Assembly: GCA_049324215.1 (NCBI GenBank)
Contig: JBMOLC010000040.1
Span: 1-31,453, forward strand
Direction of reading: 5' to 3'
Origin: Patescibacteria group bacterium
GTDB taxonomy: Bacteria > Patescibacteriota > Microgenomatia > UBA8517
Length of the DNA: 31,453 bases
Positions within the stretch are counted from its first letter, which is position 1; the number at the start of each line of letters is the position of its first letter. The position numbers and the translations under genes were made by a program. The notes below the pieces were generated by a model. That model saw nothing but the letters and a program-made list of their open reading frames with translations, was not told the origin of the DNA and did no database searches. Of the stretch, positions 13,565-22,056 are shown in pieces.

Positions 13565-16465
13565 CTAAGAAGGAGCTACCTTAAACTCCCCAAGAGAAAT
13601 TTTTTCAGCCACGGTTTTTGCTTTAACTCGAGAAAGAAGTTTTTTGTCGGAAGGTAGCCAGGGAGAAGAAACAGAAATCTTCTGACTAAGCGTCATCCCC
13701 AATTTTCTTCTTTCCTCCTGGATTTGTCTAATTAATTCCCGGACCCTGGCTTCTTCTTCTAGTTTAGGTGTAATTTTAAAATCAAATTCTTCCTTTTTGC
13801 CTCCCCAGACAACTTTCTTAACGTTTATTTCGTCCTGCAAAAGCTCTTCAATTCCGGACGAAAGTTTTTCTTCCTTGGTGGTAAAGGCGGCAAGGGGGGT
13901 TCTTACCGGAACTTTCTTTTCTTTCCTTATGGCATGGGCCCTCTCAACTATTCTTCTAACAGCCTCTATATCACTTTTTAGTTTTTCGTCTACTTCCCCC
14001 GCCTTCGGCCAGTCGCTTAAATGAACAGACTCTTCTTTGGTTAGGTTCGTGTAAATGATTTCAGCTAAGAAGGGTGTAAAGGGAGCCAGCAACTTGCAAA
14101 GAGTAGATAGCACATGGTTCATGGTTTCATAAAAAGCACTTTTGTCCTTCTCGCTTTCGGCTGCAGGGCCAACCCTGTCTCGGGAGCGCCGGATATACCA
14201 GAGGGATAAATCGTCAACAAATGTTTCAATTTCGCTGCTGGCATTATATGCGTCGTAATCCTTCAAAGATTCCTCTACGCTTTTTATTGTTTGGTTGAGC
14301 CTACTGACTATCCACTTATCAAGGATGTCTAAAGAGTTCTTAGTATTTCTCCCCGGTTTCCAACCGTCAATATTGGCATAGGAAACAAAAAAGTTATAGA
14401 CATTCCAGAGTTTGAGGTGAAACCTTCTTCTGGTTTCGTCTGCGAGGTGATATCCAAAAAGCAGGTTTTCGGAGGGGTTTTGCCGGGCGTACATCCAGCG
14501 CATGACGTCAACCCCGATTTTGTCCGCTCCCTCGTTAAACTCGATGGCATTCCCCCAGGACTTGTGCATGGGCCTACCGTCCTCACCCAGGAGTGTTGCA
14601 AACCCGAGTACCGTCTTAAAAGGTTCTCTATTCTCAAGAACTGTACTCATGGCGAGAAGGGAATAAAACCAGTTTTTGAATTGCCCCGGGAAACTCTCGG
14701 TAATAAAATCTGCCGGATACCACTTCTCAAATTCGGCCCGATCGGTTAAGTATAAGGGCGCGCTTTTGTTGTCCGAAGAAATCGTTGAAAAAGAAACTAT
14801 GCCCGCATCTAGCCAGGGATTGCCCACATCGGGAATTCTCTTCATAACCTGCCCACACTTAGAACATTTGATTTTAATCTCATCAATCCAGGGTCGATGG
14901 GGAGAGTTTCCCTCAAACTTCTCCCAACCCTGCCTGCCGGCAGGCAGGCTCAAAGCTTTTTCTTTGAGTTCTTCTTTTCCGCCGATTACCTCAAAGTGTC
15001 CGCACTCTTTACATTCCCAAATAGGAAGAGCTAGTCCCCAGTACCTTTTCTTTGAGATTAACCAGTCGTGCATGTTGGCAAGCCAATCAAGTTCACGCTT
15101 TAAGCCAAACTTGGGGATCCAGTTAATCTTCCTGGCTACCTTCTTAAGAGGTTCCCTTAAAGGGTCCATGGCGATGTACCACTCGTCGACCACCCTCCAA
15201 ACAAGTTCTGTTTTACAACGCCAACAAGCCGGATAGCGGTGGGTATAGGGGGTTATGTCGAAAAAATATTTTCCACCGTCTTTATTTTTCAAAAAATTAA
15301 CGATAATCTCGGGATGTTCTTTGGCATTTTTGCCCGAAAATTCACCCAAATCCGAAATATAAGTCGCTTCCTCGTCAATGAGTTCAATTACGGGTAAGTT
15401 TAGTTTTTTACCTAACTGAAAGTCTTCGGTTCCTGCTCCCGGGGCAACGTGCACTAGGCCCGTCCCCTCCTCTTCTGAAACCGGTAAAATCTTCTCATCT
15501 GTGGCAACCACTACGTGTTCGTATTTACCAAGAGAACTTTTAACCCTGGGAAGAAAATCAAAGGCAGATGTATATTTAAGTCCTACCAATTCTTCACCCT
15601 TAATCTTCTTTTCGATTTTGAGATTCAGTCTTTTGGCTGCATACTCATTTAAGTAATAAATATTCCCTTTAACCTCACCCCTAGCGGCAACATAATCTCT
15701 GTCGGCGGCAATTGCCACGGCAACGTTCCCGGGAAGGGTCCAGGGGGTGGTAGTCCAAACCAGAAGATATGCGTTTTTCCTGCCAACAATTGGGTACTCA
15801 ACATAAACAGAATCGTGGGTTGCCTCTTTATAGTCCTCGGTCAGCATCTCGTGCTGGGAAATGGCTGTACCGCAGCGGGGACACCAGGGGACTGAGTCGC
15901 GTCCTTTATAAATAAGTCCCTTTTCGTGGCATTTTTTGAGAAAGTGCCAAATCATGTAGTTATTTTCATCCGATAAGGTGTAATAAGAATTATCCCAATC
16001 CATGAAGTAACCTAGCCTTTTTGATTGTTCGGTTTGAATGGAAGCATACTTCTTGACTCTTTCCTTACAAAGTTCAACAAACTTGGCAATCGAAGCTTTT
16101 TTGTCCCCGGGAACAAGGTTCTCGATGTCTTTTTTACTCTTTAAACCAAGTTCTTTTTCAACTTCAACCTCAACCCAAAGACCCTGACAGTCAAAACCGT
16201 TTTGAAATCTCTGTTGGTAGCCTTGCAGGTTATAAAATCTCTGCCACAAGTCTTTATAGGTTCTTCCCCAGGCATGGTGTACTCCCATGGGATTATTTGC
16301 AGTAATCGGGCCATCAAGAAAAGAAAAGTATTTGGAAGAGTTTCTATTTTTCTGAAGATATTTTTTAACAAGACCGCTCTCGTACCAAGAAGAAAGAAGT
16401 CCTTTTTCTAAAGAAGGAAAATCGGGTTTGGGGTCAACAGAATCAAAAAAAGGCTTTTTAGCCAT
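13565..16465 (-). CDS. ileS: Isoleucine--tRNA ligase, type 2-like
   Basis: FLDGP.TAN, GFDCQGLWVE, LVWTTTPWTLPGN, GTGLVH.APG, DWLISKKRYWG, WYIRRSR; signatures read GVHH and PMHKS. Confidence 0.97.
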   Translation of the reverse strand: MAKKPFFDSVDPKPDFPSLEKGLLSSWYESGLVKKYLQKNRNSSKYFSFLDGPITANNPMGVHHAWGRTYKDLWQRFYNLQGYQQRFQNGFDCQGLWVEVEVEKELGLKSKKDIENLVPGDKKASIAKFVELCKERVKKYASIQTEQSKRLGYFMDWDNSYYTLSDENNYMIWHFLKKCHEKGLIYKGRDSVPWCPRCGTAISQHEMLTEDYKEATHDSVYVEYPIVGRKNAYLLVWTTTPWTLPGNVAVAIAADRDYVAARGEVKGNIYYLNEYAAKRLNLKIEKKIKGEELVGLKYTSAFDFLPRVKSSLGKYEHVVVATDEKILPVSEEEGTGLVHVAPGAGTEDFQLGKKLNLPVIELIDEEATYISDLGEFSGKNAKEHPEIIVNFLKNKDGGKYFFDITPYTHRYPACWRCKTELVWRVVDEWYIAMDPLREPLKKVARKINWIPKFGLKRELDWLANMHDWLISKKRYWGLALPIWECKECGHFEVIGGKEELKEKALSLPAGRQGWEKFEGNSPHRPWIDEIKIKCSKCGQVMKRIPDVGNPWLDAGIVSFSTISSDNKSAPLYLTDRAEFEKWYPADFITESFPGQFKNWFYSLLAMSTVLENREPFKTVLGFATLLGEDGRPMHKSWGNAIEFNEGADKIGVDVMRWMYARQNPSENLLFGYHLADETRRRFHLKLWNVYNFFVSYANIDGWKPGRNTKNSLDILDKWIVSRLNQTIKSVEESLKDYDAYNASSEIETFVDDLSLWYIRRSRDRVGPAAESEKDKSAFYETMNHVLSTLCKLLAPFTPFLAEIIYTNLTKEESVHLSDWPKAGEVDEKLKSDIEAVRRIVERAHAIRKEKKVPVRTPLAAFTTKEEKLSSGIEELLQDEINVKKVVWGGKKEEFDFKITPKLEEEARVRELIRQIQEERRKLGMTLSQKISVSSPWLPSDKKLLSRVKAKTVAEKISLGEFKVAPS
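14929..14948. repeat. Perfect 20-bp palindrome within ileS
   Basis: CCTGCCTGCC-GGCAGGCAGG is its own reverse complement; reads (S)LPAGRQ(G) in the ileS frame. Confidence 0.95.
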
Positions 16466-16481: not shown

Positions 16482-18272
16482 CTATAGATTCATAACCTTT
16501 TGTAACATAAGCTCGAAATCTTTATAAGGACTTCTAATAAGTTTAGGTCTATACTTATTAAGATCTCTAATGAAATCCAAAATTTCTCCCAGAGTGCAAA
16601 TTCTAGGCACATTATTAGGCAACCTTAGATTTCTAATTTCATCCCAAATATATTCTGGGTGTGAAGTACAGACAATTGGTAATAAGTATTTATATCGACG
16701 AGGTAAGGTGAGGTCTTTACTGTTCTTGGTTATATGTTTACCAATTTCATCTATCTCTTTTAACCACCCTTTACATTGCTGCCACCGTCCGTAATATTCC
16801 TGGCCACTCCCTTCGATATATTTTTCATTAAGATAATAAGCTTTACAACTTATTGCAAAAAGGAACTCATCCTTTCCAACACAAACGTCGATATCAGTCT
16901 CCTTCTTACTTCCATCGGTGTGTAACTTCTTCCCAATCTTCCAAATTTGCTCAACTCCCGGAAGCCCTATTAATCTATTGTTTACCCCAATTTGAAAATC
17001 ATCGCCTTTTAATTTACCGAAACTTCCACCTTTTTTTATTGGCCTCCATAGATTTTTCAAGAAGTTAACCGTTGTATTAAATGCCAGAAATACGACATCT
17101 TGTGTCTCAATGTTCAGCAAATAAGACACTGGACTTAGTGTTCTGAGATTAATCTTTCCAGCATCGTTTTCGTTAAGAGAAATAAAGTCAAATATGTCTA
17201 CACCTTTCTTTTCCCACCATTTACTAGTAAGCGATTCAAGTATAATTATTGGTCCGTTAGTATCCCCAAAATCTTTCCACGATTGGTTTAATAAATTTGT
17301 ATAAGTCTGGGGCGCATATGCAGAAATATATTTAAGAAATCTTTCCTTTGTCGTAAAGTCGTAACCGAGACCATATGGATATACATTTTCATCGTTTTGT
17401 TGAAGTGTTCTGAAGGAACATAAAATGAATGCAATAATATCTTCTATGTGAACTTCATTATTAAACTTGGACTGTAACTCGCTACGAAGCAGGAAAAGGG
17501 ATCCATAAACAGGGATTGCATCAATCCAGAAAGTTAAATGGGGAATGCTTTTTAAGTTCTCAACTTTCCTCCAGTTAATCTGAACTAACGGTATCCCAAT
17601 TAAAGAATTCCGCAGCGGAATTAAAGGACTGTATCCTCCAAGTTCTGAAAGAAAGTTCCTTTTTGTTTCTTTAATACTCCTGTCATCAAATTCATGGCTA
17701 GCTTTTTTTAAATATTCCGAGGGAATTGCTCGAATGAACATACGTTTCGTGAAATCAACCTTGAGGTGGGCACCCTTCTCGACAAGGCGTAACTGCTTCT
17801 GCCCTTCAAAAAGAAGGTTTACCGCTTCCTCAAACGCAAAAACATTCTTTATGATCTCTGGCTTCTTTATAAAACCCAATAACGTCCCCGGCTCATGCGT
17901 ATATTCCTCTGGCGTAAACGAATATTTATGATTGGAAACCGCAGAATATTTCATGGCAGCAAGTATAGCTAGAACAAATTTCTGTTGGGCATCTCCGATA
18001 AAATGGCTATGGACGGGGAGCAATGGAAATGGAGGAATTATGTGGTGTAAAGCTATAAGTAATCCGAAGTGATTAAATTGTGATGCTATTAACTTCAATT
18101 CTCCCTCCACCACATCCTGGAATCTGTTGACAATATCGGACGCAAACCCTCCGGTTATTGGGAACGTTGTATCTATTTTCCTAACAGACCGTCTAAACTT
18201 CTTTCCAATCCTGGTATGAATTTCCTCCATCGCCATGGGATAAACATCGTTGGCTATCCGAAAAACATGCAT
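16482..18272 (-). CDS. Hypothetical 596-aa protein with probable C-terminal PD-(D/E)XK-like nuclease domain
   Basis: Long AT-rich ORF; C-terminal G.DFQ...ETDIDV...LFAISCK resembles restriction-nuclease motifs I-III with E replaced by S. N-terminal 420 aa not recognised. Confidence 0.6.
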   Translation of the reverse strand: MHVFRIANDVYPMAMEEIHTRIGKKFRRSVRKIDTTFPITGGFASDIVNRFQDVVEGELKLIASQFNHFGLLIALHHIIPPFPLLPVHSHFIGDAQQKFVLAILAAMKYSAVSNHKYSFTPEEYTHEPGTLLGFIKKPEIIKNVFAFEEAVNLLFEGQKQLRLVEKGAHLKVDFTKRMFIRAIPSEYLKKASHEFDDRSIKETKRNFLSELGGYSPLIPLRNSLIGIPLVQINWRKVENLKSIPHLTFWIDAIPVYGSLFLLRSELQSKFNNEVHIEDIIAFILCSFRTLQQNDENVYPYGLGYDFTTKERFLKYISAYAPQTYTNLLNQSWKDFGDTNGPIIILESLTSKWWEKKGVDIFDFISLNENDAGKINLRTLSPVSYLLNIETQDVVFLAFNTTVNFLKNLWRPIKKGGSFGKLKGDDFQIGVNNRLIGLPGVEQIWKIGKKLHTDGSKKETDIDVCVGKDEFLFAISCKAYYLNEKYIEGSGQEYYGRWQQCKGWLKEIDEIGKHITKNSKDLTLPRRYKYLLPIVCTSHPEYIWDEIRNLRLPNNVPRICTLGEILDFIRDLNKYRPKLIRSPYKDFELMLQKVMNL

Positions 18273-18292
18273 GAAAAGAAAGTAGAAAAATA

Positions 18293-19153
18293 CTACTCTA
18301 GACCAAAGTCTTTCTTCAGTCCCGCTTCTCTCGTCAGAGATTCATAAAGATCTTGAACTTTATCGGTAGAAACAACATGAATATGAGGGGTAAGTTCATG
18401 GAATGTACCGGAAAGTAATTCTTGAACCTTTGGCATACTTCCTTTGTCAACGATAATAAAAGGTTCGCTATTCCAAAGATCGAAGGCGTGTTTTAATTTC
18501 GCCAGTGCCTGATGAGGATTCCCTCCAATTTGCACCTCAAAAGCTTTCGAGGGAACACCCCTTACAACCTTTCTCCAGGTGACATCTAACCTCTCCCCGT
18601 CAATTGGATATTCCTTCTCGCTCATCAATTTTTCCATTTGTCCGATTTCTGCCAGTTTGTCTTTTATCTGATCGTGCAAAGATTGTCCGGTCTTTTCGGC
18701 TGGTTTTTCCTTGACTAAATCGGGGCTTTCCAGTCGGAGATTAAATTTATCTGAGACTCGACTAATCAGTTCAGTTATAACCTCTTGCCGGGCTGTCGTA
18801 TTAACGCCAGCCTGCAGGCTAAGGGGTAGGTCAACAACAGAAACTGCTTCTGAATGCCACTTTTCTGGAGGCAAAACCCCTAAAATTTGAAAATCGAAAC
18901 GGTAAGGGTAAATTACCCTTTTCTCTCGAATTTCGTCAGGCCATAGGGGCCTGTCCTGTTTAAACTTTGACTCGAGTTTTCCGACACCTATAACCCCTTT
19001 TGAAGGAGACTTTGCATAAAAAAGAAGAAGGTCTCCCTTCTGAAGTTTTTGCCATCGTTTTACCAACCCTCACTCGCGAACCCCCCAAACGTTTCCACTA
19101 TTAAAAGCCGTCTCCCAATTTTCTTCGTTACCCGTAAGAATCCAAAGCTTCAT
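18293..19153 (-). pseudogene. EVE (PUA-like) domain plus PD-(D/E)XK-like nuclease, with in-frame TGA at 19070-19072
   Basis: Translation from ATG 19153: MKLWILTGNEENWETAFNSGNVWGVRE*GLVKRWQKLQKGDLLLFY. The first 27 aa are the typical EVE first strand and Trp motifs, in frame with ORF 18293..19066. C-terminus has RLDV...AFEVQ. Pseudogene versus readthrough unresolved. Confidence 0.75.
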
Positions 19154-19159
19154 TTGCCC

Positions 19160-19169
19160 TATTTTAGCA
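19160..19169 (-). promoter_or_regulatory. Extended -10 TGCTAAAATA before EVE gene
   Basis: TAAAAT ends 7 nt before ATG 19153. Confidence 0.65.
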
Positions 19170-19177
19170 CCAAATAT

Positions 19178-19516
19178 TTACTTATGGGCAAAACGGAAGG
19201 TCCCCGTGCGGCCGCGTTCGGTGGTTACTTCTATTTCGTATGATTCTCCTTTGGAGAGTACTTTTACCACTTCGGGCTTTTCAGTAGGCACGACAACTCT
19301 TTCTTCTCCCCTCGTCCCAAGATCATAATCAATACCTGATTTAGAGCGATAGATAATGGTGAAGGAGTCATCGGGGCTACACTCAAACAGATAAACCTCT
19401 CTCCCTCCTTTAGAAACATCAGTGAAAGAGCCGGGCGCCTCACCCGAATTTAACTGGCGCAATCTCACCCATTCTTCCCGGCCTTGAAGTCTAAATTCTA
19501 CTTCGCACGGAGCCAT
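19178..19516 (-). CDS. Hypothetical 112-aa protein
   Basis: Fills the gap between neighbours, same strand, own extended -10; no motif recognised. Confidence 0.7.
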   Translation of the reverse strand: MAPCEVEFRLQGREEWVRLRQLNSGEAPGSFTDVSKGGREVYLFECSPDDSFTIIYRSKSGIDYDLGTRGEERVVVPTEKPEVVKVLSKGESYEIEVTTERGRTGTFRFAHK

Positions 19517-19523
19517 AATGGCG

Positions 19524-20600
19524 CTATTTTAGCATCTCCAGAGCTTGTTTGGCTTTCTCGAGGTTTTTGTTGTAGAGAACGGCTTTTTCGAATTCCACCT
19601 TGGCTTTTTCTTTTTCTCCTTGGGTTAGAAGAATTTCTCCCCGAATGATGTAAAGCTCCGAAAAAGCCCGATTGCCTCCGTTTAAAAGTCTATCGGTTAT
19701 TTCAAAGACTCTTTGGTAATTTTTTAGTTTCTGATAAGCAAGTATGGGTTCGATTTGGTACCAAAGCATTCTTCTCGGGAGTCTTGCCTCTACCTCTGCA
19801 AAAGCTTGAACCGATTTTTGGTAGTCTCCGAGATGGTAGGCTGCGGTTGAGATATTAAACTCTGGATAAACATTCTCCCCATCCAACTGTTTTTCCTTTT
19901 CGGCTCGCGCCAGAGCGTTTTTCCAGGAGAGGCTTTCGTCCCACTCCTCTCCCACAATTGCCACTACTTTTTCTTCCATCGCGGGGGTATAAACAATGAT
20001 GTAAGCGTAGTTAAAAGGCTGCCACAGGGATAAAAAATCAAAATAGGAAATTCTTTTATCCGGTCCGTGGTAGGAATCGTCCTGAATTATGACTCTTTTT
20101 TCTTCATCAAAACCCCTGACTATTCTAAAGTGGCCAATATCTTCCCCGACCCTGAGCCAGGTTTTGACAACGACTGGAATTCCGTTGGCGGTAAAGCGCT
20201 TAAGAAGCTCAATATCGCCGTTGACTCGGCTTAAGGCTTGATATCCGTACTTCTGGGCCCAGTCGGCAAATTCGGAGGTAAAAATGGTTTTGTCGTCATC
20301 GTCTCCCGTGGGATTTTGGTAAGGTCGCATCGCATCTGCCAGCTCCTTCTGGGAAACGTTTGTGCCGTACCAAGAAAGAATCATGGAAAGGGTGGCCGGG
20401 CCACAATTATTAAACGTCTGATAAACGTGGCGGGGACTATTAAGAAGGGCATAAGAAGAATTTTGACTGATTTCCTCCCTTGAATTTTGGCTAAACTTTG
20501 TTTCAAGAGGCGGCTGGGGGCGAGAGAAATAAAGAAAAACAGTAGCTCCAGCAAGAATGATGAGGGCCAGACCCAGAAGGAGAACTTTTTTCTTATCCAC
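19524..20600 (-). CDS. Membrane-anchored C39-like cysteine peptidase with C-terminal TPR
   Basis: N-terminal TM helix; YQTFNNCGPAT (Cys), GHFRIVRGFD (His), IIQDDSY (Asp); TPR-like end. Start moved to GTG 20600, 8 nt after an extended -10. Confidence 0.8.
   Translation of the reverse strand: MDKKKVLLLGLALIILAGATVFLYFSRPQPPLETKFSQNSREEISQNSSYALLNSPRHVYQTFNNCGPATLSMILSWYGTNVSQKELADAMRPYQNPTGDDDDKTIFTSEFADWAQKYGYQALSRVNGDIELLKRFTANGIPVVVKTWLRVGEDIGHFRIVRGFDEEKRVIIQDDSYHGPDKRISYFDFLSLWQPFNYAYIIVYTPAMEEKVVAIVGEEWDESLSWKNALARAEKEKQLDGENVYPEFNISTAAYHLGDYQKSVQAFAEVEARLPRRMLWYQIEPILAYQKLKNYQRVFEITDRLLNGGNRAFSELYIIRGEILLTQGEKEKAKVEFEKAVLYNKNLEKAKQALEMLK
19525..19534 (-). promoter_or_regulatory. Extended -10 TGCTAAAATA before 112-aa gene
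   Basis: TAAAAT ends 9 nt before ATG 19516; overlaps the last codons (MLK-stop) of the C39 gene. Confidence 0.6.
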
Positions 20601-20607
20601 TCTGGCG

Positions 20608-20617
20608 TATTTTAGCA
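20608..20617 (-). promoter_or_regulatory. Extended -10 TGCTAAAATA before C39 gene
   Basis: TAAAAT ends 8 nt before GTG 20600. Confidence 0.6.
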
Positions 20618-20618
20618 C

Positions 20619-20903
20619 CTAACGAGCGTTCCATCGATTAAAAAGTTTCCGGAGTTCTATCTTGGCTTCTTGCAAGATCTTTTTCCTTTGGGGTTTTAGA
20701 TTTTTTCCGGCCCGGTTGATGTAAAAATTGAGCATGCTCATGGCTGAAGCAAAAGGGCCGGCTTTACGCCTGATGCTATCCTCGACAGAACGCTTCAGAG
20801 ACGCGGCAATCCTCTTGGGATCGTCCCAGGTAAAGACCCCTTCTTCCAAATCAAGGGCAAAGGAAGTCTCGGTTACTCTTCTCGACCACTTTTTCTCTCC
20901 CAT
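20619..20903 (-). CDS. DUF3175-like small basic protein
   Basis: KKWS..VTETS.ALDLE.GVF..DDP..IA.SLKRS...SAMSMLNFYINRAGKNL. Start set at ATG 20903, downstream of the ftsZ stop. Confidence 0.75.
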   Translation of the reverse strand: MGEKKWSRRVTETSFALDLEEGVFTWDDPKRIAASLKRSVEDSIRRKAGPFASAMSMLNFYINRAGKNLKPQRKKILQEAKIELRKLFNRWNAR

Positions 20904-20913
20904 CTCCAAAAGT

Positions 20914-22056
20914 CTAGTGCCTGCGGAGGAAGGCGGGAATTTCGAATTTTTCTCCAAAAATATCTTCTTGCGGCCCTTCCTCCTCTGGAGGCTCCAGTCT
21001 CTCCGGCTCTTCCTCCTCTTTTTCCTTTTTTGGTGGCTCGCTAATTACACCTTGAATTGTGGGAGCTGCTGTCTTGGCGATACCTGCAAGCCTGGCCCTG
21101 GTCTCGTCAAAGCCCGTGGCAATGACCGTTATTCTTACCTGGTCGACGAGGTCGTCTTTGATGACGGCACCAAAAATGATGTTTGCGTCGGGATCTGCCG
21201 AAGAGGAAATAATTCGGGCTGCTTCATCAACCTCAAACATCGTTAGGTCGCTTCCTCCCGCAATGTTGAAAAGAACCCCTCTTGCTCCTTCGATTGAAAG
21301 GTCAAGTAAGGGTGAAGAAACTGCTGCACGGGCAGCCATTTGGGCCCGATTCTCTCCCACACCGGTTCCTATCCCTAGAAGTGCGGTTCCCGCATCCTGC
21401 ATAATGGCTTTGACGTCGGCAAAGTCAACGTTAACCAGTCCTGCGGTCGTAATGATGTCTGCAATTCCTCCAACCGCTTGCCCGAGGACGGCGTCAACGA
21501 CCCTAAAGGCTTCGAGTAAGGTCATTTTCCTATCGATTACATCCATTAAGCGTTGGTTGGGAATAACAATTAGGGTGTCTACCTCTTGTCTGAGATTTTC
21601 GATGCCATCGTCGGCAATAACTGCCCTTCTTGTTCCTTCAAAAGCAAAGGGTTTGGTGACAATGGCAACCGTTAGGGCTCCAGCTTCCTTGGCGAGTTTC
21701 GCAATTACCGGCGAGGCTCCGGTTCCTGTTCCACCCCCCATACCTGCTGTCAAAAATACCATGTCGCTATCTATAAGAAGCTCTTTTATTTTCTCGGTCG
21801 ATTCCTCGGCCGCCTGAATTCCCAGGTCCGGATTTCCTCCGACCCCGAGTCCTTTGGTTATCTTTTCTCCGATCTGAAGCTTGGTGGGGGCTTTATTGGC
21901 CAGAAGTACTTGGGCGTCGGTATTGATGGCGATAAACTCCACGCCGTTGATATTGTCTCCCTCGATCATCGAGGAAATTGCATTTCCTCCACCCCCGCCG
22001 ATACCAATAACTTTTATTTTGGCAATTCTGGCAGAGTCAGGTTTAACTAGCGCCAT
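20914..22056 (-). CDS. ftsZ: Cell division protein FtsZ
   Basis: GIGGGGGNA, tubulin signature GMGGGTGTG, NVDFADV, C-terminal EIPAFLRR. Confidence 0.99.
   Translation of the reverse strand: MALVKPDSARIAKIKVIGIGGGGGNAISSMIEGDNINGVEFIAINTDAQVLLANKAPTKLQIGEKITKGLGVGGNPDLGIQAAEESTEKIKELLIDSDMVFLTAGMGGGTGTGASPVIAKLAKEAGALTVAIVTKPFAFEGTRRAVIADDGIENLRQEVDTLIVIPNQRLMDVIDRKMTLLEAFRVVDAVLGQAVGGIADIITTAGLVNVDFADVKAIMQDAGTALLGIGTGVGENRAQMAARAAVSSPLLDLSIEGARGVLFNIAGGSDLTMFEVDEAARIISSSADPDANIIFGAVIKDDLVDQVRITVIATGFDETRARLAGIAKTAAPTIQGVISEPPKKEKEEEEPERLEPPEEEGPQEDIFGEKFEIPAFLRRH

Follow-up and report, generated by a model that had tools for sequence, protein, structure and literature searches.

Single-chain type IV-like enzymes, in which an EVE/PUA reader is joined to a PD-(D/E)xK nuclease domain, have been covered by a census (Bell, Wolf and Koonin 2020; PMC7641849) and by a screen (Lutz et al. 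2019; PMC6765204). [quoted passage not shown] 2026; PMC13601566). The C-terminal PD-(D/E)xK core of SeUpx contains D1161, E1176 and K1178, and the substitution E1176A abolishes Upx defence. Upx protection against phages is triggered by a phage protein (terminase or gp16).

The locus considered here lies between ftsZ and ileS on a 31,453-nucleotide stretch of DNA from a Patescibacteria group bacterium (contig JBMOLC010000040.1; hereafter the window, meaning this stretch at its full length). A preliminary description had tentatively combined three genes of this locus, encoding a 112-aa protein, an EVE-nuclease and a 596-aa protein, into a single modification-dependent defence system. It is considered probable, with good though incomplete confidence, that the ftsZ-ileS interval is instead a hypervariable spot with five unrelated accessory genes, among them two independent single-gene nuclease systems, and that there is no module.

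The interval between ftsZ and ileS

The host genome is small (704 kb) and is represented by a metagenome-type assembly of 47 contigs. In the window, ftsZ and ileS are separated by 4.4 kb containing five accessory genes (Table 1), and the window's ftsZ shares 71-83% identity with its counterparts in 24 relatives. The three genes of interest (19516-16482) are tightly spaced and all on the minus strand, as first described, with intergenic gaps of 24 nt (112-aa/EVE) and 20 nt (EVE/596-aa).

Table 1. Positions of genes and sequence features in and around the ftsZ-ileS interval of the window
Feature	Position	Strand	Description
ftsZ	20914..22056	-	380-aa ORF; conserved left border of variable site
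DUF3175 protein	20619..20957	-	Pfam DUF3175 E 1.7e-40; island cargo
C39-like cysteine peptidase with TPR repeats	19524..20618	-	Pfam Peptidase_C39_2 E 1.3e-19 and TPR_2; island cargo
112-aa gene	19516-19178	-	lineage-specific ORF
EVE-nuclease gene	ATG 19153 to TAG 18293	-	EVE domain and predicted restriction-endonuclease-like domain; in-frame TGA
In-frame TGA, codon 28 of EVE gene	19070-19072	-	stands in place of invariant Gly codon
596-aa gene	18272-16482	-	ORF; C-terminal PD-(D/E)xK nuclease fold
ileS	13565..16465	-	966-aa ORF; conserved right border of variable site
TGCTAAAATA boxes	19160-19169 (EVE); 19525-19534 (112-aa); 20608-20617 (C39)	-	exact 10-mer match

The borders of the interval are stable and its contents are not. 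Next after ftsZ comes ileS in 17 of 18 relatives, at a spacing of 73 nt to 7.3 kb, and the gene order in these 17 runs from ftsZ to ileS, a 350-aa gene, rplU and parB. The cargo found there includes a ResIII helicase, an ASCH protein together with PDDEXK_1, PDDEXK_1 alone and a Y1 (IS200-type) transposase. Both cargo and length differ among the 17 relatives, which marks the ftsZ-ileS junction as a hypervariable hotspot of insertion. The DUF3175 gene was not found at this site in any of 18 relatives, and the C39 peptidase gene is reduced to a remnant in a close relative (L006; EVE 90% and ftsZ 92% identical to those of the window). The earlier contrast of a setting amid essential genes with one on a mobile element needs correcting in view of the variability of the junction and of the nuclease, helicase and transposase cargo that relatives carry there. 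No convincing integrase, tRNA gene or flanking repeats marking a mobile element were found around the window's island.

An exact 10-mer, TGCTAAAATA, which resembles an extended -10 box, lies 6-8 nt ahead of the starts of three genes, EVE, 112-aa and C39, and at no other place in the window (three found, 0.14 expected), and transcription from these boxes would be leaderless. The true start of the C39 peptidase is probably the GTG at 20600, 7 nt past the 10-mer. On the minus strand, a consensus scan of the 20 nt from the EVE stop to the 596-aa start detected no promoter-like or terminator-like site, in agreement with the earlier remark that the last gene has no obvious promoter of its own. Co-transcription of the EVE and 596-aa genes is therefore plausible, and a local functional link between them may exist as far as the sequence goes. 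The 596-aa gene may be expressed by read-through from the EVE promoter, though solely owing to its landing place.

Distribution of the three gene families

Co-occurrence was assessed with BLAST and HMMER, which reach only partners recognisable by sequence, and on this basis the three families travel separately. Among 85 EVE-nuclease loci from many phyla, tblastn located the 596-aa gene at none and the 112-aa gene at one, that of L006, at the same site. Neither the EVE nor the 112-aa gene was found beside 596-aa homologues (six loci). In 60 relatives, the EVE-nuclease is present in one, the 596-aa gene in none and the 112-aa gene in three, never together, and 400 sampled genomes of the phylum contain the EVE-nuclease once and the 596-aa family not at all. 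Across unrelated genomes the genes were not found adjacent, the sole case of conserved adjacency being the 112-aa and EVE genes of L006.

These counts bear most directly on the proposal of a single system, in which the EVE protein would sense modified phage DNA, the 596-aa protein would be a second effector, the 112-aa protein might or might not take part, and all would be expressed from one transcription unit. Tight spacing and common orientation, the bare gap between the EVE and 596-aa genes and the presence of nuclease-type domains in both of their products are consistent with this proposal. However, besides the lack of co-occurrence in every sample, the 112-aa and EVE genes are retained in L006 but different genes follow EVE there, the EVE-nuclease family is uniform in length and solitary across phyla, and the EVE and 112-aa genes have separate promoter-like boxes. 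The genes also differ in base composition: the 596-aa gene has a GC content of 0.37 (GC3 0.35), against 0.43-0.48 for its neighbours, which would fit separate acquisition as a stand-alone gene. The single-system proposal is accordingly given very little credence and, as the families travel separately, the module should be dropped as a candidate.

The 112-aa gene had been called an orphan, which is nearly right, given that it has very few matches; still, two other database proteins match it, as do three proteins in the 60 relatives, weakly or moderately. It has no family in Pfam, NCBIfam or PADLOC, and its Atlas matches score only 0.57 and were discarded as noise. Recognisable homologues are P0277 (71% identity), P0278 (54%) and the L006 protein (53%), along with those of G042, G016 and G050. 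Comparison with the homologue in L102 gives dN/dS of ~0.23, which indicates a real coding gene. It is probably a fast-evolving, lineage-specific gene with its own promoter.

A narrower pairing, in which the 112-aa protein would regulate, inhibit or confer immunity to the EVE-nuclease, draws on the evidence that the 112-aa gene is coding and under selection, and on the retention of the 112-aa/EVE pair in both the window and L006, at gaps of 24-26 nt. The two genomes are close relatives that share the site, so that the pair amounts to one observation, and the other 84 EVE-nuclease loci are without the 112-aa gene. Homologues of the 112-aa gene also occur without EVE: before radC in L102 (71% identical), past rpoC-rpsL-rpsG in G042 and elsewhere in G016. 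The EVE clades closest to this one have a different conserved neighbour, a downstream 71-aa gene, and in the window each member of the pair has its own promoter-like box. Such a two-gene lineage module is consequently judged improbable, if marginally less so than the three-gene system.

The EVE-nuclease gene

The middle gene had been described as an EVE reader-nuclease, and the domain analysis supports this call, which corresponds to a known type IV-like architecture. Read through the TGA, it scores 29.7 bits against Pfam EVE (cut-off 23). The EVE domain spans residues 1-~140 and is followed at residues ~155-286 by a predicted restriction-endonuclease-like domain. The EVE part matches PH1033 (profile E 1.5e-5) and, by Foldseek, 2hd9 (E 6.9e-6), then YTH and ASCH folds. 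In the C-terminal half, the AF2 model shows a helix/three-strand/helix/strand order, at a pLDDT there of only 45-85, and E181, D190 and E206-x-Q208 are invariant in the homologue alignment. The gene product is thus predicted to be a one-polypeptide type IV-like enzyme with a putative modification-dependent role in defence. Its EVE/PUA-like N-terminal pocket would bind a modified base, and the C-terminal domain would cut the bound nucleic acid.

The reading frame is interrupted by a single in-frame TGA at codon 28 and is not an intact ORF. All 14 aligned EVE homologues have glycine at this position, and the closest relative has GGA, a single-base difference. The longest ORF past the TGA lacks residues 1-29, and without them the protein falls to 18.1 bits, below the Pfam cut-off; the segment lost comprises the reader's first two strands and first helix, with nine invariant residues. 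In the present assembly, the change from GGA to TGA at the invariant Gly28 would switch the enzyme off. Two forms of recoding were considered and rejected. An alternative genetic code (table 25, TGA = Gly) does not fit, as every other long gene is intact under table 11 and TGA ends three of the window's 27 genes; selenocysteine does not fit either, the aligned residue being an invariant Gly and not Cys.

Comparison of the EVE gene with that of L006 gives pN 0.057 and pS 0.80, with pS saturated, which indicates strong purifying selection. Given this constraint on the rest of the gene, the GGA-to-TGA break is either recent or an assembly error. The stop may have arisen in sequencing or assembly, or may be a variant carried by a minority of the population, such that the EVE-nuclease is intact in most cells: it is one base off GGA, the remaining gene is undamaged and the source is a metagenome-type assembly. 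Yet there is no mark of error anywhere in the sequence, and loss of type IV enzymes through point mutation is common. The genome also encodes an N6/N4 DNA methyltransferase, which could make the EVE enzyme self-toxic. An error or minority variant at this codon is accordingly possible but rather doubtful.

The 596-aa protein and comparison with known systems

The 596-aa protein had been called nuclease-like, a label that holds for its C-terminal ~180 residues. In the AF2 model of the protein (pLDDT 91, pTM 0.92), a large helical and alpha/beta region spans residues 1-~410, and residues ~417-596 are predicted to adopt a PD-(D/E)xK fold of the Can2/NERD kind, in which D460, D462 and S475-C-K477 are present. 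The family profile aligns with the Can2 nuclease domain (E 2.8e-5) over a G-x-x-F-E...D...E-C-K core. Pfam NERD is reached by 10 of 42 aligned family members and some match the PADLOC CARF_PDDEXK models; the window's own protein has no Pfam match and is under the NERD and CARF_PDDEXK thresholds. The family comprises ~200 clusters at 50% identity, mostly of 570-650 aa and many with an N-terminal SEC-C zinc motif. PADLOC PDC-S12 and E2 matches in relatives cover only this ~20-residue motif and were dismissed as showing no family kinship. Homologues L002-L004 adjoin a five-tRNA gene cluster, and L005 and L091 have other neighbours.

In Foldseek searches, Upx (9wuf) is the best and sole significant structural match of the model (E 2.9e-5, probability 1.0, but TM 0.24 and rmsd 17 A). 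Atlas neighbours of the protein include PF28173 Upx-like (TM 0.57 over 448 residues). By sequence, neither PADLOC nor PDB searches link the protein to Upx, and a viral structure library returned nothing at E <= 0.001. The N-terminal region is probably a sensor or regulator of the C-terminal nuclease, as in single-protein Upx. Two of the four usual catalytic residues are replaced (Q427 for Glu, S475 for Glu), and throughout the subclade, down to 24% identity, S-x-K is kept with D-x-D, a pattern that argues for function. It can tentatively be suggested that the family consists of half-size Upx relatives acting as stand-alone anti-phage sensor-nucleases, that the window's subclade has a variant D-x-D...S-x-K site, and that ftsZ-ileS is a dedicated defence hotspot in this ultra-small bacterial order.

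Both nuclease genes could instead lie outside defence. The EVE-nuclease would then be a conserved housekeeping enzyme whose substrate is modified RNA or DNA, and the 596-aa protein would be a relic without catalytic activity. The EVE-nuclease family has ~600 full-length homologues of uniform ~285 aa in bacteria and archaea; the protein of this bacterium is 47-51% identical to those of archaea, and the JGI label is 'predicted RNA-binding protein'. In Dehalococcoidia, the gene adjoins secA and prs in conserved synteny and looks vertically inherited, which would also fit a housekeeping role. For the 596-aa protein, the subclade lacks the ExK Glu that is essential in Upx. Against this, both genes are very patchily distributed in the 400 genomes of the phylum, and the EVE-nuclease elsewhere adjoins PDC-M33ABC, PDC-M41A with a GHKL ATPase, or a DNA methylase and Vsr. 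Further nucleases and a helicase occupy the window's hotspot site in relatives, and the conserved residues of the 596-aa subclade speak against a relic. A role outside defence is therefore considered unlikely, and two independent nuclease systems in a variable interval remain the preferred reading.

The main value of the analysis is corrective, in that three genes packed closely together in a compact genome do not amount to evidence of a system. That a reduced genome of 0.7 Mb still keeps a nuclease-type turnover hotspot between essential genes is relevant to annotation. The 596-aa family is widespread, unannotated and confidently foldable, with a recently solved structure as its sole significant structural relative, and offers a modest lead that could be included at little cost in a screen for single-gene defence.

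Among described systems, Upx shares with the 596-aa protein a stand-alone gene and a layout in which an extensive non-catalytic region precedes a PD-(D/E)xK core placed at the very C-terminal end. The window's protein is only half as long (596 vs ~1270 aa), short of the three-domain size of Upx. Of the Upx core, D462 and K477 are present, with D460 as an extra acidic residue, whereas the essential ExK Glu (E1176 in SeUpx) corresponds to S475 and the helix Glu to Gln. The Can2 nuclease domain shares the core aligned by the family profile, and NERD is matched by part of the family; unlike Can2/Card1, the 596-aa protein is without a CARF domain and CRISPR context.

The EVE-nuclease resembles EVE/PUA type IV-like enzymes in its N-terminal EVE domain of PH1033-like fold, its predicted C-terminal alpha/beta domain of restriction-endonuclease-like type, in which acidic residues are conserved, and its occurrence as a solitary gene of patchy distribution, often beside other defence genes. 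It differs in that its nuclease half has no sequence match in Pfam or PDB and carries E-x-Q, not E-x-K. By language-model and structure leads only, this half is nearest NmeDI_C-type domains, and its Atlas neighbours bear NmeDI_C, Mrr_cat or PDDEXK_3. The window's family is also unusually conserved, and the window copy is broken by the stop.

At the level of the neighbourhood, the closest comparison is with defence islands and hotspots between core genes. The window's island differs from these in having no integrase, tRNA gene or flanking repeats and in belonging to a host with a reduced genome of ~0.7 Mb; such islands are less often described in reduced genomes. The ftsZ-ileS site shares with them conserved borders and variable cargo: nucleases are frequent in it, and a helicase, a transposase and a PUA-like reader also occur. 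The window's neighbourhood looks like a defence island, and the local biology is ordinary defence-island biology.

Accessory genes at the ftsZ-ileS junction

The window is contig C40 of a 704-kb source genome (47 contigs, 98.7% complete), and its region between ftsZ and ileS appears to be a defence-island-like hotspot, not a three-gene modification-dependent module. It holds a small lineage-specific gene alongside two single-gene candidates for nucleases, which are unrelated to each other and one of which is broken at present. In a survey downstream of ftsZ (loci L103-L120 of relatives G001-G045), 17 of the 18 relatives examined show ftsZ and then ileS, a 350-aa gene, rplU and parB, with ftsZ-ileS distances of 73 nt to 7.3 kb. 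Relatives do carry other cargo at this site, a possibility raised in the preliminary description, and its contents differ each time: a ResIII helicase, an ASCH/DUF3850 reader with a PDDEXK_1 nuclease, a PDDEXK_1 nuclease alone, an IS200-type Y1 transposase or glycosyltransferase-like ORFs (judged by eye). None of the five cargo genes of the window recurs at the junction in the relatives examined. The variable distance and differing cargo thus point to a recurring insertion hotspot for accessory genes in this order; the description of the three genes as lying among essential genes is accurate in that ftsZ and ileS flank them, but only as hotspot cargo. The island of the window shows neither an integrase or tRNA gene nor any convincing flanking repeat. 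At L006, the locus of a close relative, all that is left of the C39-like peptidase is a remnant of ~60 codons between ftsZ and a 111-aa gene, which shows cargo decay and turnover even where the ftsZ proteins are 92% identical.

Coordinates of features in the window, the source genome and related loci
Feature	Position	Strand
ftsA	23367-22114	minus
ftsZ	22056-20914	minus
DUF3175 gene	20957-20619	minus
C39-like peptidase with TPR repeats	20618-19524	minus
112-aa gene	19516-19178	minus
EVE gene	19153-18293	minus
596-aa gene	18272-16482	minus
ileS	16465-13565	minus
Extended -10-like box	19160-19169	minus
Extended -10-like box	19525-19534	minus
Extended -10-like box	20608-20617	minus
N6/N4 methyltransferase-Mrr-like fusion	G000:C38:8735-9490 (locus L123:1003-2322)	minus
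C39-like peptidase remnant	L006:2231-2317	
tRNA-gene neighbourhood of 596-aa homologue	L002:1-1700	
71-aa gene 3' of EVE gene	L007:6990-7202	
71-aa gene 3' of EVE gene	L010:6951-7163	
71-aa gene 3' of EVE gene	L101:3649-3861	

Distribution and transcription of the three genes

The three genes are co-oriented and closely packed as first described, with gaps of exactly 24 and 20 nt. The proposal that they form one system was not borne out by sequence-similarity searches, in which the families do not travel together. Among 85 EVE-nuclease loci, the 596-aa gene is found in none and the 112-aa gene in L006 only, which has the same ftsA-ftsZ flank and different genes after EVE. Relatives of the 596-aa gene stand alone, beside five tRNA genes and an ORF resembling, by eye, a homing endonuclease (L002-L004) or in other contexts (L005, L091), and relatives of the 112-aa gene occur without EVE after rpoC-rpsL-rpsG (G042), before radC (L102) and elsewhere (G016). 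Across 60 related genomes, the EVE-nuclease was found once, the 112-aa gene three times and the 596-aa gene not at all, never together in one genome; a sample of 400 genomes from the phylum gave one match to the EVE-nuclease profile and none to the 596-aa family profile. Clustering of EVE neighbours yielded no common partner, only lineage synteny (e.g. with secA, prs and valS in Dehalococcoidia), and elsewhere the EVE-nuclease adjoins differing candidate systems, namely PDC-M33ABC with a methylase-Vsr pair and PDC-M41A with a GHKL ATPase.

The 112-aa protein has no family in Pfam, NCBIfam or PADLOC, and its Atlas matches were dismissed as noise. Its few homologues are the database proteins P0277 (71%) and P0278 (54%), the L006 protein (53%) and those of three of the 60 relatives (G042, G016, G050). 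The gene is coding (dN/dS about 0.23 against L102) and evolves much faster than its neighbours.

The window has three copies of the exact 10-mer TGCTAAAATA, a TGn plus -10-like hexamer, against 0.14 expected by chance. All three lie 6-8 nt upstream of the starts of consecutive accessory genes (EVE, 112-aa and C39), and the copy before the EVE gene is conserved in L006. This placement suggests that each of the three genes has its own promoter and a leaderless mRNA, and that the C39 peptidase starts at GTG 20600, not 20618. The 596-aa gene, as first described, has no obvious promoter of its own: no TGCTAAAATA box precedes it, and a scan between it and the EVE gene found no terminator; read-through from EVE is plausible because neither element precedes it. 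Such read-through reflects where the 596-aa gene landed, not joint working with EVE, and neither it nor tight packing implies a functional link. GC is 0.37 and GC3 0.35 in the 596-aa gene vs 0.43-0.48 in its neighbours, which fits separate acquisition.

The in-frame TGA of the EVE gene

The EVE gene contains, as noted earlier, a single in-frame TGA (codon 28, 19070-19072). Glycine occupies this position in all 14 aligned homologues, and the closest (P0007, 90% identical) has GGA. Recoding was ruled out, since TGA serves as a stop codon in this genome and translation with table 11 leaves the other genes intact. Compared with L006, synonymous sites are saturated (pS 0.80), and pN is 0.057, a constraint close to that on ftsZ (pN 0.041), though slightly weaker. 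Because the gene is nearly as constrained as ftsZ, the TGA is probably a very recent break, a population variant or an error. A product restarted past it would be missing the first two strands and the first helix of the reader, where nine invariant residues lie, and would score under the Pfam EVE cut-off. No C5-cytosine methylase was found in the source genome, where the sole clear DNA methyltransferase found is of N6/N4 type, fused to a Mrr_cat/NA-iREase1-type domain; a clash between this enzyme and a modification reader is one possible reason for inactivation of EVE.

Predicted nucleases and related systems

The 286-aa read-through product of the EVE gene passes the Pfam EVE cut-off (29.7 vs 23 bits). 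The family profile retrieves PH1033, an EVE/PUA-like protein (E 1.5e-5), which is also the first structural match of the N-terminal half of the AF2 model, followed by YTH and ASCH folds. Approximately 600 database proteins, nearly all of 280-300 aa, match along the entire length; they span many bacterial phyla and archaea, with archaeal members still 47-51% identical. The C-terminal ~135 residues have no sequence match in Pfam or PDB; they are modelled as helix, three strands, helix and strand, with invariant E181, D190 and E206-x-Q208. As a lead only, the nearest language-model and structure neighbours of this domain carry NmeDI_C, Mrr_cat or PDDEXK_3, some with Mrr_N in place of EVE. The EVE-PD-(D/E)xK architecture is catalogued among putative type IV restriction enzymes (PMC7641849, PMC6765204); the EVE gene of the window would share it, and its product would belong to this already known kind of putative enzyme.

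Directly 3' of EVE, the clades nearest to that of the window (64-77% identity) encode a conserved helical protein of 71 aa (50-69% identity), which seems to travel with EVE; the modules beyond vary (PDC-M33ABC; GHKL ATPase with PDC-M41A; 206-aa and 744-aa genes). The 71-aa gene is absent from the window and L006. Conserved synteny in Dehalococcoidia (L019 and about 15-19 other loci, with prs as a PRPP-synthetase-like gene) suggests vertical inheritance, leaving room for a possible non-defence role.

The 596-aa protein has no match in Pfam or NCBIfam, and PADLOC gives a single weak match (REase_II, E 0.015). Searching 5.8 billion proteins by word index returned four relatives (50-59% identity), and exhaustive HMMER against 1.8 billion representatives returned 207, mostly of 570-650 aa, with similarity mainly confined to the last ~200 residues. 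This C-terminal core (G-x-x-F-E ... (E/D)-x-D ... E-C-K) aligns through the family profile with the Can2 nuclease domain (E 2.8e-5), and 10 of 42 members reach Pfam NERD. In the window's protein the helix Glu is replaced by Gln, and its subclade has D460-x-D462 ... S475-C-K477; because this motif is kept down to 24% identity, the site of this predicted nuclease appears to be a conserved variant, not simple decay. A SEC-C zinc-binding motif stands at the N-terminus of 19 of 42 members (alignment A2), the window's protein being without it, and is the sole cause of spurious PADLOC matches to PDC-S12 and E2 (CBASS) among relatives. At L002, a 57%-identical homologue lies right after five tRNA genes (Leu, Val, Phe, Gly, Gln), separated from them by a 227-aa ORF with a homing-endonuclease look by eye and a faint Pfam HTH_23 match, a typical integration neighbourhood.

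The family is an uncharacterised group that offers a modest lead. AF2 folds the 596-aa protein with high confidence (pLDDT 91, pTM 0.92). The model has no match among viral structures, and in the PDB it significantly matches Upx alone (9wuf; E 2.9e-5, probability 1.0), with a TM of only 0.24. Independently of this Foldseek match, Atlas neighbours carry Pfam 'Upx-like', as a lead. On these grounds the protein is probably Upx-related, as a candidate only. Upx provides defence as a single protein, which combines a large sensor region with a PD-(D/E)xK core at the C-terminus and is switched on by phage terminase or gp16 (PMC13099982, PMC13601566). The 596-aa protein is half as long, and would most likely work in the general manner of Upx, an N-terminal regulatory or sensor region controlling the C-terminal nuclease.
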